A stretch of 64,000 nt of DNA. It comes from a phage. The notes beneath the pieces are model-generated. The model ran no database searches. It saw only the letters and a program-made list of their open reading frames with translations, and was not told where the DNA came from. A program made the position numbers and the translations under genes. Shown in pieces: positions 43,712 to 51,439 of the stretch. Each line of letters begins with the position of its first letter. Position 1 is the first letter of the stretch. Location: NCBI GenBank assembly GCA_020381345.1, contig GCA_020381345.1_3636.1; one strand, 5' to 3'.

Positions 43712-44425
43712 TTAAATATACTCTGTTACATCCTTGAAGCTTGAAGGCTTCATGATCTTACCTTTACTGTCAAGGAATATGATAACTTTATTACCGTTGT
43801 AGAATTCTTCCTTGGCAACAAAACCTTCATATCGACCATCAAAGCGTCGTTCAAGATCTTTAATCTCCAACTCGATTAGTTGTTCAGCAGGCATATCTGC
43901 ACTGGCACCGTGTGAATACCGTAGATGGTTGACCCGTGCAAACTTGCTGTCATTCGATTTGAGAACCTTACGCATCATCCCGCACACATCGCCGCGAAGC
44001 TGGAACAGCAAAGCTGTTGACAACTCTGCTAAGCGGTAAGCAGACGCTCTTTGCTTAGAGGTGTTTTTCGCAGCGATCAGTGTATCATAGAACTCGCCGA
44101 TCTTGAACTTAAGACCTCGCGGATTATCAAACAGGTTTGACCACTTTTCGTGATTGTCATTAACAAGATAAGCGGCATAACTTGTGACAACATGAAGATC
44201 GCAGGCCTCTTTTAGCAGGTGATCTCCACCATCACCTTTCTCCAGCTCTTCCAAAACCTCATTGAACTCTTCCTCAATGAAGCTAAGCTGTAATTCGAAT
44301 GGTGTGTATGATTTTTTCACTTTAGCTGCCACACGGTTCCAGTTTTCCACCCAATTGGCAGACCAAAGGTAGTTTTCAGGCTGAGACAGTTTTTCCAGGT
44401 TGTCGATCAGTTTAGTATTCAGCAT
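43712..44425 (-). CDS. hypothetical protein, possible MazG-like NTP pyrophosphohydrolase (237 aa)
   Basis: Acidic stretch FIEEEFNEVLEELEKGD..EACDLH resembles the MazG EExxE..D pattern; weak. Confidence 0.35.
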   Translation of the reverse strand: MLNTKLIDNLEKLSQPENYLWSANWVENWNRVAAKVKKSYTPFELQLSFIEEEFNEVLEELEKGDGGDHLLKEACDLHVVTSYAAYLVNDNHEKWSNLFDNPRGLKFKIGEFYDTLIAAKNTSKQRASAYRLAELSTALLFQLRGDVCGMMRKVLKSNDSKFARVNHLRYSHGASADMPAEQLIELEIKDLERRFDGRYEGFVAKEEFYNGNKVIIFLDSKGKIMKPSSFKDVTEYI

Positions 44426-44438
44426 TAAAGGTCTCCTT

Positions 44439-45200
44439 TTAAAGTTCCATAAAGTTTTCTACAGTTTCAATAAATGCTTTATCAGAGAAAGCGTCAACAG
44501 CACCGTTAAACCATACAGGGATCCCGCGATCCTCATATTGATAAAGGTCGCTACGTGAAATGCCACTTCCATCTGCACTCTGCGAATCATACTTGTTTAC
44601 AATCAGCAGTTTTGTTCCTTTACAAGTAGCAGGAAACAATTCCCAGTTAAAATTAATAACTGTGTTAGAACAACCCACTAGGATCACCATATCATTGCTG
44701 GTGAGAGATGTCAACAGGTCATACATGTCTGTATACTTAGGAGCAACCTCGCCGAAGAACACTACATTGGGCTTAACCCAGGTATACTTGCCTGTATCTA
44801 CCTCCGTGTATCCGATATTTTTAATTACATCATTACCTTCAGCATCTTCGTAGGTGATTTCAGGCAAATACCCGTGGACATGTAAAATATCTTCATGTTT
44901 TACACCAGCACGCTCCAGCAAATCATCTACATTGGTGGTAAGGTTGATCACACGACCAGACCAGCGGGAATACCACTCAGCGATCCGAAGATGTGCAAGG
45001 TTAGGATCAACACTGCCCAGAGCTACACGACGTGCATTGTAAAAGTCATGCACCTTATAGTAGTTCTTGGCAAAGGTGTGGATGTTGCACACCTCATCGA
45101 TGCTGAAATTCTCCCACATTGCAGTGCTACCAGATCGGAAGGTGGGAATACCAGATTCTGCGCTCAAACCAGCACCAGAAATAACAATAAGTCGTCGCAT
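44439..45200 (-). CDS. Sir2-family NAD-dependent deacylase / ADP-ribosyltransferase (253 aa)
   Basis: Sirtuin NAD-binding motif GAGLSAESGIPTFR at the N-terminus. Confidence 0.75.
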   Translation of the reverse strand: MRRLIVISGAGLSAESGIPTFRSGSTAMWENFSIDEVCNIHTFAKNYYKVHDFYNARRVALGSVDPNLAHLRIAEWYSRWSGRVINLTTNVDDLLERAGVKHEDILHVHGYLPEITYEDAEGNDVIKNIGYTEVDTGKYTWVKPNVVFFGEVAPKYTDMYDLLTSLTSNDMVILVGCSNTVINFNWELFPATCKGTKLLIVNKYDSQSADGSGISRSDLYQYEDRGIPVWFNGAVDAFSDKAFIETVENFMEL

Positions 45201-45208
45201 AAATGTCC

Positions 45209-45559
45209 TTAGTAGATGTTTTGTTTGATCTCTATTCCAAACTTCTTGAATGAGTCAGCAGCAAGCATAAATTTACGAGCTGCCGATGGATTAGAAGTAT
45301 GCACGAAAATAATCACGTTGTCAATAAGTGGTGGCTTTCCGAATACAAGTTTCTCCTCTAGCGCAGAGAAGCAGTCGTACCCTTCAAGAACTTCACCTAG
45401 ATCATTGTCAAAATACCATTCAGATACGCGTCTGTAGAGCTTTCTCTTATCATTAAGAAAATCCATAAATTCAGAAGAATTCTTTAGCCACAGAGCGTCT
45501 GGGAGTCCATAATCTGACGGATCTCTAAAATCATCAAGCCACACAATCCACTTCTTCAT
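45209..45559 (-). CDS. hypothetical protein (116 aa)
   Basis: Internal ATG overlaps the RNA ligase stop as ATGA. Confidence 0.45.
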   Translation of the reverse strand: MKKWIVWLDDFRDPSDYGLPDALWLKNSSEFMDFLNDKRKLYRRVSEWYFDNDLGEVLEGYDCFSALEEKLVFGKPPLIDNVIIFVHTSNPSAARKFMLAADSFKKFGIEIKQNIY

Positions 45560-46473
45560 TGCATATAGTCCTCGTTGTGGAAATAGCAGTCCAGTATCTC
45601 GCGACGCTCCTGCTCTAATAAGCAATTCCACACATCTTCTGTATAGTTGCTACGAATAAATTTTACCATACCGTAAAACTCCTCGTCAACACGTTTAAAA
45701 ATATCGTCATCCCAAATCTTCCATGCTTTACCTCTCATTACGGCCTTCCGTGCCAAATAGTATGGAGACTTGATCTTCAGCTGCAGGTCATAAGGGTAGT
45801 AAGGCTTACGGATCATATACCCTTCGCCCCTTGTTTCTGCAGCTAATTCTTTTGCATAGCTGAACGGGATTTCACGCACAGTGTGAGGACGTTTTGCACC
45901 AAGGTATTTGGCAATCCCATCTAAAGCTGCTTCTGGTAGCATTATTCCAGAATCATTATATCTGCAACCTATCAAATATGCGCCATGGTCTTCTTGAACA
46001 ATATGCGGATCTGAAGGGTGACAAATTTCAAACATGAATGTCATGTTTTCATTGCCCATAACCTTCTTGATAAGATCTAAATTACCACATTGCTCTTGGA
46101 TGGTTTCCTTTGCAAGGTTACAATATGGAGAATCAAGAGACCCGGTTGTTGAGAACAATAGTTCACCTTTATGAGATGATACCACACCGAGGAATCCGTT
46201 CTTTTTCTCTACCGCAGTAACAAGTTTACTGTCCGGTAGGTTGGTGGAGTTTTCTCCTAAGTTGAATACTTTTGTGAAAGGCCATGCCACAACATTCCCC
46301 TCATTGCCAACAACAATACCTCGGCACTCCAGTAAACGCGGAGACAAATGCCACAGATTGTTGTAGAATACTTTTCTGGCATATTTATAGATCTTTAATC
46401 CAAGATCTGGATAATACCGACTGGTTACAAGACCTTTGTCTACTAGGTCATCTGCATTAAAATACTTCATCAT
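45556..46473 (-). CDS. Rnl1-like RNA ligase
   Basis: Matches recalled T4 Rnl1 in LECRGI, KVFNLGEN and the nucleotidyl-transfer lysine region EKKNGFL; start placed at ATG with RBS GAGGA. Confidence 0.75.
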   Translation of the reverse strand: MMKYFNADDLVDKGLVTSRYYPDLGLKIYKYARKVFYNNLWHLSPRLLECRGIVVGNEGNVVAWPFTKVFNLGENSTNLPDSKLVTAVEKKNGFLGVVSSHKGELLFSTTGSLDSPYCNLAKETIQEQCGNLDLIKKVMGNENMTFMFEICHPSDPHIVQEDHGAYLIGCRYNDSGIMLPEAALDGIAKYLGAKRPHTVREIPFSYAKELAAETRGEGYMIRKPYYPYDLQLKIKSPYYLARKAVMRGKAWKIWDDDIFKRVDEEFYGMVKFIRSNYTEDVWNCLLEQERREILDCYFHNEDYMQ

Positions 46474-46534
46474 ACGTTCCTCATTTGTCATTTTGTCAGT
46501 CTATCCTGCCACACAAATAACCTAGTGTCAACAC

Positions 46535-46563
46535 TTGAAATTAACAAAACAGTTAGGTATACT
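46535..46563 (+). promoter_or_regulatory. sigma70-like promoter
   Basis: TTGAAA, 17-nt spacer, TATACT in the divergent region between RNA ligase and kinase. Confidence 0.5.
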
Positions 46564-46591
46564 ATCATTAAAATTAAAACGGAGGATTGCT

Positions 46592-47002
46592 ATGTCTAAA
46601 ATGCTATATATCGTGCGTGGTCTGCCAGGGTCTGGCAAATCAACACTGGCAAATGCGCTATCTTTAGAAGGTCTGTATCCACATTTTGAGAACGACATGT
46701 TCTGGTATGACGATGACGGCAATTACAACTGGGATGCAAGTAAAGTAACACTCGCAGCAAAATGGTGCAAAGATAACGTAGAAGATATGATGCGTATGGG
46801 ATACGACCGTATCGTGGTAAGTAATACGTTTACAAAAGAAAAACATGTGCAGGAATATGTTGACATGGCAATCAGTCATGGGTATAGTTATACCGTGATC
46901 GTGGTTGAAAACCGCCACGGTAATAAAAGCATTCATGATGTTCCAGACAAGGTTGTGGATCGTATGGAACGCCAGCTTAAAAACTGCATTAAACTTAAAT
47001 GA
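46592..47002 (+). CDS. P-loop kinase, polynucleotide 5'-kinase-like (136 aa)
   Basis: Walker A GLPGSGKST; RBS GGAGG 6 nt before ATG 46592. Confidence 0.6.
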   Translation: MSKMLYIVRGLPGSGKSTLANALSLEGLYPHFENDMFWYDDDGNYNWDASKVTLAAKWCKDNVEDMMRMGYDRIVVSNTFTKEKHVQEYVDMAISHGYSYTVIVVENRHGNKSIHDVPDKVVDRMERQLKNCIKLK

Positions 47003-47009
47003 GGAATGT

Positions 47010-47564
47010 ATGAAATACTTTGTAACAAGCGACACACACTTTCTCCACCAGCGGGTCATGGAGTTTGATTCATGTCAAAAACACAGATCTCAGTATGATC
47101 ACAATCTTGACAGTATGAATGCGGGAATCATCGCCGAGTGGAACTCTGTTGTGTCACCTGCAGACACTGTGTTCCACTTGGGAGATATTGCGTGCACTAA
47201 TGATAAGAATATCAACAAATTACTTCCAGATATTCTAAATATGTTGAACGGACATATTATTCTTGTTCGTGGCAACCATGACACAAGGACGACTGTCAGA
47301 ATTATGAAAGAGTTCGGTCATGAGGTTGTAGATTATTACGAGCTTCGCCACAACAAGAATTTGATCTGTATGAGCCATTACCAGTTTGCAAAGTGGAACA
47401 GAAAGCCTCACGGATCAGTCCAACTGTTCGGTCATGCTCACGGAACCACACAACAGTTGTTTGGCAGGCAGCTTGATGTCGGTTGGGATGTGTGGGGGAG
47501 ACTCTTACCATTAGAAGAGGCATACCGTACTGCAATGAGTTTTGATATTGACAGCAGGGAGTAA
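47010..47564 (+). CDS. calcineurin-like metallophosphoesterase (184 aa)
   Basis: Motifs SDTHF, GDIA and GNHD; track ORF 46905..47564 is an upstream-extended version of the same frame. Confidence 0.6.
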   Translation: MKYFVTSDTHFLHQRVMEFDSCQKHRSQYDHNLDSMNAGIIAEWNSVVSPADTVFHLGDIACTNDKNINKLLPDILNMLNGHIILVRGNHDTRTTVRIMKEFGHEVVDYYELRHNKNLICMSHYQFAKWNRKPHGSVQLFGHAHGTTQQLFGRQLDVGWDVWGRLLPLEEAYRTAMSFDIDSRE

Positions 47565-47611: not shown

Positions 47612-47962
47612 ATGAAAGATGGGGATAAGCTGCTATATCTTAAAGTCCCCCTTGAAATACTATCTATGTCAAAAGTTTTGAATGACACAACTGGGGAGGT
47701 TGTTGTTCTTGACTTGTATGACAAGATCGTATACTGCTACCTGCACAACTGGTATAAGCTTGGAGGAAATTCACGCTTCACACCAAGCACAAGGAAAATT
47801 GCAGCAGATGTTGGGATAAAGAAAACAAAAGCAGCAGCGTGCGTTAAAACTTTAGAATGTGCAGGAGTGGTTGAAACATCCACACAAGGGAGAGGTAAAA
47901 GATGCACATTTTCCAAAGTTTTGCCACCAGAAAAAGTTATTCGAATGTCAACAACTGGTTAG
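47612..47962 (+). CDS. putative DNA-binding protein (116 aa)
   Basis: HTH-like segment TRKIAADVGIKKTKAAACVKTLECAGVV; sits just upstream of the iteron array. Confidence 0.5.
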   Translation: MKDGDKLLYLKVPLEILSMSKVLNDTTGEVVVLDLYDKIVYCYLHNWYKLGGNSRFTPSTRKIAADVGIKKTKAAACVKTLECAGVVETSTQGRGKRCTFSKVLPPEKVIRMSTTG

Positions 47963-50499: not shown

Positions 50500-50574
50500 G
50501 CCCTGTTAGCTTAGTGGATAAAGCAGCGGCCTTCTAAGCCGTTGACACTGGTTCGAGTCCAGTACGGGGTGCCA
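50500..50574 (+). tRNA. tRNA-Arg (anticodon TCT)
   Basis: Hand-folded cloverleaf: acceptor GCCCTGT/ACGGGGT, anticodon loop CTTCTAA, T-loop TTCGAGT, encoded CCA. Confidence 0.7.
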
Positions 50575-50704
50575 AGTTCTTTTTAATGTAGCTTACTTTA
50601 GCAGAGTAAATCTTCGGCAAGTGGCGGTAACCACTTTACCGATACCTCATAGTTAGTGGTGAGAACACTAGCTATTTTAAAAAGAATTTAAATATTAGTA
50701 TTTA

Positions 50705-50792
50705 GGTGAGTTAATTCCGTAGGGGTAGCGGGGCAGACTGTAAATCTGTTATCATTGCGATTCGGGTGGTTCGACTCCATCACTCACCACCA
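50705..50792 (+). tRNA. tRNA-Tyr (anticodon GTA), long variable arm
   Basis: Acceptor GGTGAGT/ACTCACC, anticodon loop CTGTAAA, T-loop TTCGACT, CCA; 88 nt. Confidence 0.6.
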
Positions 50793-50906
50793 AATTTATA
50801 TTTTTAAATGCATAAATCATACAGATAATGGCATTGATATTTATCGTCGTTTATACTAGTCACTAACTGCTCGAAAATCAGTGTCATTATCAGTATTGTT
50901 TATAAA

Positions 50907-50997
50907 AGAGGGTAGGGAGCAATGGTGCTCAAGCGGTCTTGAAAACCGTCCCGTTGAGGATTACTCGATGATGGTTCGATTCCATTATCCTCTGCCA
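50907..50997 (+). tRNA. tRNA-Ser (anticodon TGA), type II
   Basis: Acceptor AGAGGGT/ATCCTCT, anticodon loop CTTGAAA, T-loop TTCGATT, CCA; 91 nt. Confidence 0.6.
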
Positions 50998-51095
50998 TAT
51001 TGTTGACCTTGTAATTAAGCGAAAGCCGGAAGCAGAACCGGATTATCAAATGTTACAGTCGTCATCGCCGACTAGCAACATGGTCAACATACTGA

Positions 51096-51192
51096 GCTAG
51101 GTAAGCCCTTTGGCAAGGGCGAGGATTTTTAATCCTGAAAATAGACGAGGTAGTCGTTGAATACATAGGTGGTTCGATTCCATCACCTAGCA
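51096..51192 (+). tRNA. atypical tRNA-like element (97 nt), anticodon uncertain
   Basis: Acceptor GCTAGGT/ACCTAGC, D-arm GCCC/GGGC, T-arm GGTGG-TTCGATT-CCATC, but non-canonical anticodon arm, 29-nt extra arm, A at position 8, no CCA. Confidence 0.35.
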
Positions 51193-51199
51193 CCTTTTT

Positions 51200-51275
51200 G
51201 CTGATGTAGCACAATTGGTAGTGCAATTGATTTGTAATCAATAGGTTGCAGGTTCAAGTCCTGCCATCAGCACCA
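51200..51275 (+). tRNA. tRNA-Thr (anticodon TGT)
   Basis: Acceptor GCTGATG/CATCAGC, anticodon loop TTTGTAA, T-loop TTCAAGT, CCA. Confidence 0.7.
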
Positions 51276-51276
51276 T

Positions 51277-51351
51277 GGCCCTGTAGCTGGAAGGTTCAAG
51301 CAAGCGACTCATAATCGCCAGACGGTGGTTCAATTCCACCCAGGGCCACCA
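51277..51351 (+). tRNA. tRNA-Met or Ile2 (anticodon CAT)
   Basis: Acceptor GGCCCTG/CAGGGCC, anticodon loop CTCATAA, T-arm GGTGG-TTCAATT-CCACC, CCA; D-stem weak. Confidence 0.55.
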
Positions 51352-51362
51352 AATAATGAATA

Positions 51363-51439
51363 CTCCGCGTAGCTCAGCTTGGTAGAGCGCCTGATTTGGG
51401 ATCAGGAGGTCGAGTGTTCGAATCACTCCGTGGAGACCA
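51363..51439 (+). tRNA. tRNA-Pro (anticodon TGG)
   Basis: Acceptor CTCCGCG/CGTGGAG, D-arm GCTC-AGCTTGGTA-GAGC, anticodon loop TTTGGGA, T-loop TTCGAAT, CCA. Confidence 0.7.

Follow-up and report, generated by a model that had tools for sequence, protein, structure and literature searches.

Can an RNA ligase, a stand-alone kinase and a metallophosphoesterase that are encoded side by side in a phage genome act together in RNA repair, and which of them would heal the 3'-ends? This question is raised by the genes at positions 45556-47564 of a phage contig of 64,000 nucleotides (nt) (GCA_020381345.1_3636.1, NCBI GenBank assembly GCA_020381345.1), the full length of which is referred to here as the window. 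Over the 2.5 kb around these genes, the identity to Escherichia phage V5/rV5 (NC_011041, genus Vequintavirus) is 99.7%; at least 80% of this region is carried by 118 phage records. We consider it likely that the three genes constitute a split heal-and-seal RNA repair set directed against cuts by metal-independent nucleases, probably host anti-phage tRNases. As a prediction, RNA repair by this locus is already known, since the genes are so annotated in public records and the neighbourhood has been published for the same phage (PMC9503650). Our additions are modest. The phosphoesterase is placed in the aq_1665 family, the three-gene core is far wider spread than its extension by sirtuin and cREC genes, natural kinase-ligase fusions exist, and the kinase-phosphoesterase pair also partners Rnl2-like ligases. 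The core consists of the following genes, with sizes in amino acids (aa) of the open reading frame (ORF):

45556..46491, minus strand: Rnl1-family ATP-dependent RNA ligase, rV5 gp078; 311 aa ORF, probable start at 46473 or 46470
46592..47002, plus strand: stand-alone P-loop kinase, assigned to the polynucleotide-kinase clade, rV5 gp077; 136 aa
47010..47564, plus strand: aq_1665-family calcineurin-like metallophosphoesterase, rV5 gp076; 184 aa, candidate 3'-end healing enzyme

RefSeq labels these genes 'RNA ligase 1 and tail attachment protein' (rv5_gp078), 'ATPase' (gp077) and 'phosphoesterase' (gp076), and the labels in BASEL phage EmilHeitz are 'RNA ligase', 'polynucleotide kinase' and 'putative phosphoresterase'. 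A first-pass annotation of the sequence had described an Rnl1-like ligase on the minus strand divergent from a P-loop kinase and a metallophosphoesterase on the plus strand. All three ORFs were found in this arrangement, and profile searches with each protein gave strong domain matches that are not due to chance.

Based on folds, intact catalytic residues, linkage and a gene fusion, all established computationally, we infer the substrates and a division of labour in three steps. The 136-aa kinase would phosphorylate RNA 5'-OH ends, the metallophosphoesterase would clear the 2',3'-cyclic or 3'-phosphate left by metal-independent ribonucleases, and the Rnl1-family ligase would adenylylate the 5'-phosphate and then seal the break. 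Such a pathway would likely serve to restore tRNAs, or further RNAs of translation, after cuts by host anti-phage nucleases.

Catalytic sites of the three enzymes

The ligase matched the Pfam family RNA_lig_T4_1 (PF09511) over profile positions 1-227 of 227 with E=9.1e-15 and 55.6 bits (cut-off 28.3). Its true start is probably M7 or M8 (46473 or 46470), because a GAGGAA Shine-Dalgarno sequence lies 5-8 nt upstream of these codons and the spacing to M1 is poor. This shorter form is the one annotated in the BASEL records. The residues K96-x-N-G99, E155, E223-G224, K239-x-K241, R57, K74 and F76 are invariant across 51 ligase homologues. Matched by motif pattern and T4 residue numbering, they include an invariant equivalent for each of the essential nucleotidyltransferase residues of T4 Rnl1. 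The fold is nearest to Rnl1 and not to Rnl2, Rnl3, Rnl4, Rnl5 or DNA ligases, and the architecture comprises a nucleotidyltransferase domain followed by a short (~55 aa) helical C-terminal domain, with the helical region at residues ~264-310. Judged by fold and catalytic residues, gp078 is an Rnl1-family ligase. Against the T4 RnlA equivalog model TIGR02308 it reached 38 bits, below the cut-off of 242, and covered only model positions 32-250 of 373, so that it does not qualify as an RnlA equivalog. T4 Rnl1 in the PDB was not matched by the ligase in phmmer and profile searches.

The mechanically called ORF of the kinase begins at TTG 46535, and the real gene begins at ATG 46592 with GGAGGA upstream. 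The protein matched Pfam AAA_33 (E=1e-10) and phrog_505, 'polynucleotide kinase' (E=5e-10). For comparison with the PDB a 51-sequence family profile was used; a single-sequence PDB search was uninformative. The ranking of the profile matches was led by a Rhizopus kinase (9d8a), the P-loop NTPase 9drz, Pnkp1 of the Pnkp1-Rnl-Hen1 complex (4xrp) and T4 Pnk (1ly1/1ltq), with adenylate kinase 9 (9d2f), seryl-tRNA(Sec) kinase (PSTK) and the CthPnkp kinase domain (4gp7) further down. Thus, most top matches are RNA or polynucleotide 5'-kinases. In the alignment with T4 Pnk 1ly1 (E=4e-5), D35 is placed on the catalytic D35 of the T4 enzyme, and the P-loop GxxGxGK(S/T), D35, R108 and an ENRH motif are invariant in the family. 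Assignment of the kinase to the polynucleotide-kinase clade is supported by these comparisons. The family is very large, with at least 8000 candidates, nearly all of them stand-alone proteins of ~130 aa. The 136-aa kinase gave only AAA_33-type Pfam matches and none to a HAD (DxDxT) 3'-phosphatase domain, and a missing phosphatase domain has already been remarked for the Pakpunavirus orthologue (PMC12846349).

For the phosphoesterase, the mechanical ORF begins at an upstream TTG and the real start is ATG 47010, 7 nt past the kinase stop. The Pfam families Metallophos_2 (E=1.7e-6) and Metallophos (E=3.3e-6) were both matched over their cut-offs. All five motifs of the calcineurin-like superfamily are present (DxH, GD, GNH(D/E), H and GHxH), and the dinuclear metal site is intact, with D8, H10, G58-D59, G88-N89-H90(-D91), H123 and G141-H142-x-H144 invariant or nearly so in 45 homologues. 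The nearest structural relative is Aquifex aeolicus aq_1665 (PDB 1xm7), followed by LpxH, MJ0936, YfcE, the Pseudomonas MPE nuclease and Mre11/SbcD; PdeM and YfcE were matched weakly in NCBIfam. On this structural similarity, the phosphoesterase belongs to the uncharacterised aq_1665 family and not to the bacterial Pnkp/lambda-phosphatase type. The first-pass annotation's division of the predicted healing half between two separate genes without a HAD phosphatase is supported, and its comparison of the phosphoesterase to that of bacterial Pnkp has to be replaced by the aq_1665 family. The aq_1665 structure stems from structural genomics and has no assigned function, so that the substrate of gp076 cannot be read from it. 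The phosphoesterase, as the predicted 3'-healing enzyme, is the weakest link in the proposed pathway and its least secure step.

Linkage of the three genes in other phages

The conservation of the gene set was assessed in 80 IMG/VR loci with ligase relatives and several GenBank phages, in which all ORFs were searched with hidden Markov models (HMMs) of the three families. The ligases formed 29 clusters at 70% identity, and genes within 2 kb of the ligase were counted as neighbours. A kinase was found in 26 of the 29 clusters, a phosphoesterase in 22 and both in 21. The kinase lies downstream of, upstream of or divergent from the ligase, and the phosphoesterase overlaps, lies 0.1-1.5 kb upstream or follows downstream. 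Because order, orientation and spacing vary, this pattern argues for retained linkage rather than frozen synteny, although shared ancestry contributes. The divergence of ligase and kinase is peculiar to rV5-like phages; the genes are co-directional in phi92, Mydo, JG004 and Acinetobacter phage P1.

In 2 clusters (IMG/VR L036-L050) an N-terminal kinase and a C-terminal ligase are joined in a single ORF of ~430 aa, recognized by the respective HMMs with E=3e-52 and 2e-95. One example, L046:9527-10825 (+), combines Pfam AAA_33 and RNA_lig_T4_1. By its domain composition this ORF is a Rosetta-stone fusion of kinase and ligase. The profile phrog_8238 (737 positions) likewise has the kinase N-terminal and the ligase C-terminal. 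A Pnkp-like fusion with this phosphoesterase as a further part was considered for it, and the phosphoesterase gave no match to the profile at E<0.001.

Seven kinase homologues from elsewhere were also sampled. In 2 of these, a Metallophos gene directly follows the kinase, abutting it or overlapping it by a few bases, and in one of the two, both from freshwater phage contigs, a PF09414 (Rnl2-like) ligase is encoded 1.8 kb from the pair. For another 2, a ligase of Rnl1-like or Rnl2-like type is encoded at a distance of 1-3 kb, and for the remaining 3 no annotated partner was found. In Streptomyces phage Genie2, a distant ligase relative is paired with an 891-nt gene (~296 aa) annotated 'polynucleotide kinase'.

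These data bear on two other explanations of the set. One is that only kinase and ligase repair RNA, the metallophosphoesterase being an unrelated neighbour that acts on DNA ends, on cyclic or linear nucleotides or on defence signals. Such a role would suit its structural neighbours past aq_1665 (LpxH, MJ0936, YfcE, MPE nuclease, Mre11/SbcD) and its weak PdeM and YfcE matches, as well as the DNA-metabolism contexts of its distant relatives and the fusion lineages that have no phosphoesterase nearby. However, kinase and phosphoesterase are tightly packed, 7 nt apart in rV5 and abutting or overlapping in the unrelated freshwater phages, and in 22 of 29 clusters the phosphoesterase has stayed at most 2 kb from the ligase although the genes were rearranged. 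Moreover, without phosphoesterase or cREC the cassette would be left without a 3'-end healing activity. We therefore regard the unrelated-neighbour explanation as unlikely.

According to the other explanation, kinase and phosphoesterase process DNA ends (5'-OH, 3'-phosphate) for a nearby ATP-dependent DNA ligase, as in the case of mammalian PNKP. T4 Pnkp also acts on DNA, and an ATP-dependent DNA ligase is encoded 2.5 kb from the RNA ligase here and 1-4 kb away in many relatives. However, the DNA ligase gene is missing from many loci and does not keep a fixed distance, and it is with RNA ligases, of two families, that the kinase is fused or directly contiguous, in no case with the DNA ligase. 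A function in DNA end processing is thus very improbable, and we retain RNA repair by all three enzymes as the preferred explanation.

Several further genes were seen around the ligase relatives. Near the fusion ORF (L036-L050, e.g. L046) no rV5-type phosphoesterase was observed; the downstream side has an ATP-dependent DNA ligase at 2.3 kb and a tmRNA gene at ~5 kb. In a metagenomic phage contig (L095:5277-7209), an Rnl2-like ligase near a kinase homologue is apparently split (PHA02142 + RNA_ligase) by a GIY-YIG/NUMOD homing-endonuclease gene. Acinetobacter phage vB_AbaM_P1 (L087:10761-11867) has a second annotated RNA ligase ~4 kb downstream of its Rnl1-like ligase-kinase-phosphoesterase set, beside a PRPP-synthetase-like gene, and two RNA ligases are also described for Pakpunavirus Adele (PMC12846349). 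Within 10 kb of the ligase, 17 of 29 clusters have a nicotinamide phosphoribosyltransferase-like gene (e.g. L003, L004, L005) and 15 a PRPP-synthetase-like gene. The pair resembles NARP1, an NAD+ reconstitution pathway of phages. Pakpunavirus-like loci additionally contain Macro-domain and HD-domain genes. None of these four kinds of genes (nicotinamide phosphoribosyltransferase-like, PRPP-synthetase-like, Macro-domain, HD-domain) was found in the 64-kb window.

The divergent intergenic region and the proposed NAD+-linked extension

In the window the core genes are separated by a strand-switch point and are accompanied by three genes that the first-pass annotation had not included, all co-oriented with and downstream of the ligase:

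46492..46591, no strand: divergent ligase-kinase intergenic region of 100 bp, strand-switch point
45209..45559, minus strand: cREC (cyclic-phosphate-processing receiver-like) protein, rV5 gp079; PF20274 cREC_REC, E=1.6e-13
44439..45200, minus strand: Sir2-family protein, rV5 gp080; PF02146, E=7e-28
43712..44425, minus strand: MazG-like nucleotide pyrophosphohydrolase, rV5 gp081; phrog_671, E=5e-22, and RefSeq annotation

Genes are on the minus strand from ~8 to 46.5 kb and on the plus strand from 46.5 to 64 kb, with the switch at the ligase-kinase spacer, and the GC skew of the window flips sign within 46492-46591. A promoter-like site is located at 46535-46563 inside the spacer. The number of promoter-like sites in the region, 16, is not above that in shuffled sequence (11.8 +/- 3.7).

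The cREC start overlaps the ligase stop, and both genes are translationally coupled. Its translation contains a DD pair at residues 9-10. Aligned with E. coli CobB (1s5p), its closest solved relative, the Sir2 protein keeps the catalytic HG and has a non-cysteine at every position aligned to the zinc-module cysteines of CobB (VRCS.., KCHCC). By this alignment gp080 is a zinc-less sirtuin. The MazG-like gene gave no Pfam match, and a Pfam scan of the neighbour proteins detected no KptA/Tpt1 or 2H domain.

The cREC family was defined, and its function predicted, in PMC7824862 and PMC9503650, whose authors call it experimentally uncharacterised. In section 3.7.3 of PMC9503650 (Iyer, Burroughs, Anantharaman, Aravind 2022), Escherichia phage V5 and Proteus phage Mydo are prototypes of a type-2 neighbourhood that contains a sirtuin, a T4-like tRNA ligase, cREC, a nucleotide kinase, MazG and, 'occasionally', a phosphoesterase of calcineurin-like type. 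It was proposed that the sirtuin removes 2'-phosphates like KptA/Tpt1, and NAD+-linked RNA repair was predicted. All six components are found within 43712-47564, and the locus studied here is thus the same type-2 neighbourhood. The published survey was centred on the sirtuin, with the phosphoesterase as an occasional member. Our ligase-centred count reverses this emphasis, since kinase (26/29) and phosphoesterase (22/29) are common and sirtuin and cREC (4/29) are rare.

If this NAD+-dependent route (Iyer et al. 2022) were the main pathway, cREC would open the 2',3'-cyclic phosphate to a 2'-phosphate, kinase and ligase would join the ends like fungal Trl1, and Sir2 would move the junction 2'-phosphate to NAD+, which is the job of Tpt1/KptA. 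Metallophosphoesterase and MazG-like enzyme would then merely clean up ADP-ribose by-products. An iterated HMM search placed the cREC, Sir2 and MazG-like genes with the ligase in only 4 of 29 clusters, against 26 for the kinase and 22 for the phosphoesterase. Since the extension genes are so rare beside the ligase, the widespread core must work without them. In addition, RNA dephosphorylation is known for no sirtuin, and cREC is uncharacterised. We consequently doubt that the NAD+-dependent route is the principal one. From the gene neighbourhoods sampled, the widespread core is kinase, phosphoesterase and ligase, and the NAD+-linked genes are a Vequintavirinae-type addition.

Both routes are compatible and could coexist. 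In rV5-like phages, cREC, the zinc-less Sir2 and the MazG-like enzyme may add a second, NAD+-dependent clearing of 2'/3' phosphates to the activities of the core. In its strongest form, two independent 3'-end healing routes would feed one Rnl1-type ligase, one with the aq_1665-type phosphoesterase as 2',3'-cyclic phosphodiesterase/phosphatase and one with cREC and the zinc-less sirtuin (Tpt1-like, NAD+). To our knowledge, Tpt1-like removal of 2'-phosphates has never been shown for any sirtuin, and we assign this dual-route model only a small probability. If true, the aq_1665-type route would mean that this step was invented independently for a third time, the two earlier cases being the T4 Pnkp HAD domain and the lambda-phosphatase-like domain found in bacterial Pnkp, and would provide the first function for the aq_1665 family.

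Neighbouring tRNA genes and dispensability on E. coli K-12

The phage tRNA genes, which had been placed 3 kb downstream, indeed begin 2.9 kb past the phosphoesterase stop:

50500..51439, plus strand: tRNA cluster, detected with ARAGORN and Rfam

The cluster comprises Arg-UCU, Tyr-GUA, Ser-UGA, Lys-UUU, Thr-UGU, Met/Ile-CAU and Pro-UGG. The number of tRNAs is seven and not six, since tRNA-Tyr(GUA) at 50705-50789 (+), which has a long variable arm and scored 39 bits with Rfam, was missed by ARAGORN. The 97-nt tRNA-Lys(UUU) at 51096-51192 (+) has the anticodon loop UUUUUAA, and an insertion of ~27 nt lengthens its variable region, an uncommon feature in a Lys tRNA. It reached 35.5 bits with the Rfam tRNA model, was reported by ARAGORN as 'tRNA-???' with a 4-base anticodon, and its equivalent in EmilHeitz is annotated as tRNA-Lys. 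As tRNA-Lys(UUU) is the classic target of PrrC, this tRNA may serve as a nuclease-evading spare. An intron or a split gene in the 97-99-nt tRNA, which might need a ligase, was rejected because Rfam puts the extra 27 nt in the variable region and not in the anticodon loop. Among 28 ligase-cluster representatives scanned, 14 have tRNA genes within 10 kb of the ligase. The repair cassette would have an accessory, conditional function that complements the phage's own replacement tRNAs 3 kb away.

For Bas54, a close relative, transposon data on E. coli K-12 that include the syntenic locus are available from a HIDEN-SEQ preprint (10.1101/2025.11.20.689424). In its reference column, the mean insertion read counts are 405.6 for Sir2, 87.7 for cREC, 192.3 for the ligase, 170.6 for the kinase and 139.9 for the phosphoesterase. 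Since insertions are tolerated, all five genes are dispensable on this host. This fits a conditional, non-structural accessory role and speaks against an essential role in tail attachment. The 'tail attachment protein' label of the ligase was rejected as a guide to such a role, as it was carried over from T4 gp63 and the Bas54 gene tolerates insertions. In contrast to the Bas54 ligase gene, T4 rnlA is intolerant of insertions in its N-terminal domain.

Just past the phosphoesterase, at 47612-47962 (+), a small HTH/DUF6945 protein is encoded, for which both 'transcriptional regulator' and 'replication initiation protein' are in use as labels. In Bas54 the mean insertion count of the orthologous gene (bas54_0212) is only 13.6 as compared with 90-400 for its neighbours, and this protein is probably important for growth.

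Points against an RNA repair function

A number of observations weigh against RNA repair by the three core enzymes. The C-terminal domain of T4 Rnl1 (full length ~120 aa) confers tRNA specificity. Its counterpart in the rV5 ligase reaches roughly half that length, and tRNAs are therefore not a certain target. Arg38 of T4 Pnk, which contacts the acceptor nucleotide, has no equivalent in the kinase, where W38 occupies the position in rV5 and F in the family consensus. For the phosphoesterase, the closest structural relative lacks a known function, and phosphodiesterases acting on lipids, nucleotides and DNA come next. Distant relatives of the phosphoesterase (33-35% identity) reside in replication and recombination neighbourhoods that are free of kinase and ligase genes within 3.5 kb. 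In 7 of the 29 ligase clusters, including both kinase-ligase fusion lineages, the phosphoesterase is not within 2 kb, and synteny among related myoviruses partly reflects common descent instead of selection. We found no enzymatic or genetic test of these proteins in the literature. Finally, in one Bas54 host comparison presented in the preprint, the ligase, kinase and phosphoesterase genes were not significantly depleted (10.1101/2025.11.20.689424).

Relation to known repair systems

The rV5 set resembles T4 Pnkp and Rnl1 in the Rnl1-family fold and catalytic residues of its ligase, in a Pnk-clade kinase with a P-loop and an equivalent of Asp35, and in the order of 5' phosphorylation, 3' phosphate removal and sealing. 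In contrast to T4, the kinase is a separate, HAD-less protein with W/F in place of Arg38, 3' healing is assigned to a metallophosphoesterase, and the ligase has a much shorter C-terminal domain and stays far below the RnlA equivalog cut-off.

With the bacterial Pnkp/Hen1 system of Clostridium thermocellum and with Pnkp1-Rnl-Hen1 it shares the combination of a kinase, a metallophosphoesterase and an ATP-dependent ligase for healing and sealing, and the latter system provides a precedent for a separate ligase subunit. Instead of a single kinase-phosphoesterase-ligase polypeptide, the rV5 set consists of three genes on two strands, and it has neither the lambda-phosphatase-like metallophosphoesterase nor the Rnl4-type ligase domain of bacterial Pnkp. 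A partner corresponding to the 2'-O-methyltransferase Hen1 was not seen, as a scan of nine proteins from 41.8 to 49.2 kb gave no methyltransferase-family match.

The rV5 ligase also shows fold similarity to Trl1-LIG, and Sir2 is adjacent to the set. Unlike fungal and plant Trl1 and Tpt1, the set includes no 2H cyclic phosphodiesterase and no Tpt1/KptA. The domain order of the fusion proteins is kinase-ligase, whereas that of Trl1 is ligase-kinase-CPD.

Implications

The value of these results lies in motivating experiments and not in discovery. If the proposed function is confirmed, many non-T4 phages of Escherichia, Klebsiella, Pseudomonas, Vibrio, Acinetobacter and Aeromonas would repair defence-cut RNA with parts that differ from those of T4. 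The aq_1665 phosphoesterase family, cREC and a divergent clade of sirtuins would thereby each gain an assigned function. Confirmation would also help to explain the behaviour of phages on hosts with tRNA-cutting defences and would bear on the choice of therapeutic phages.

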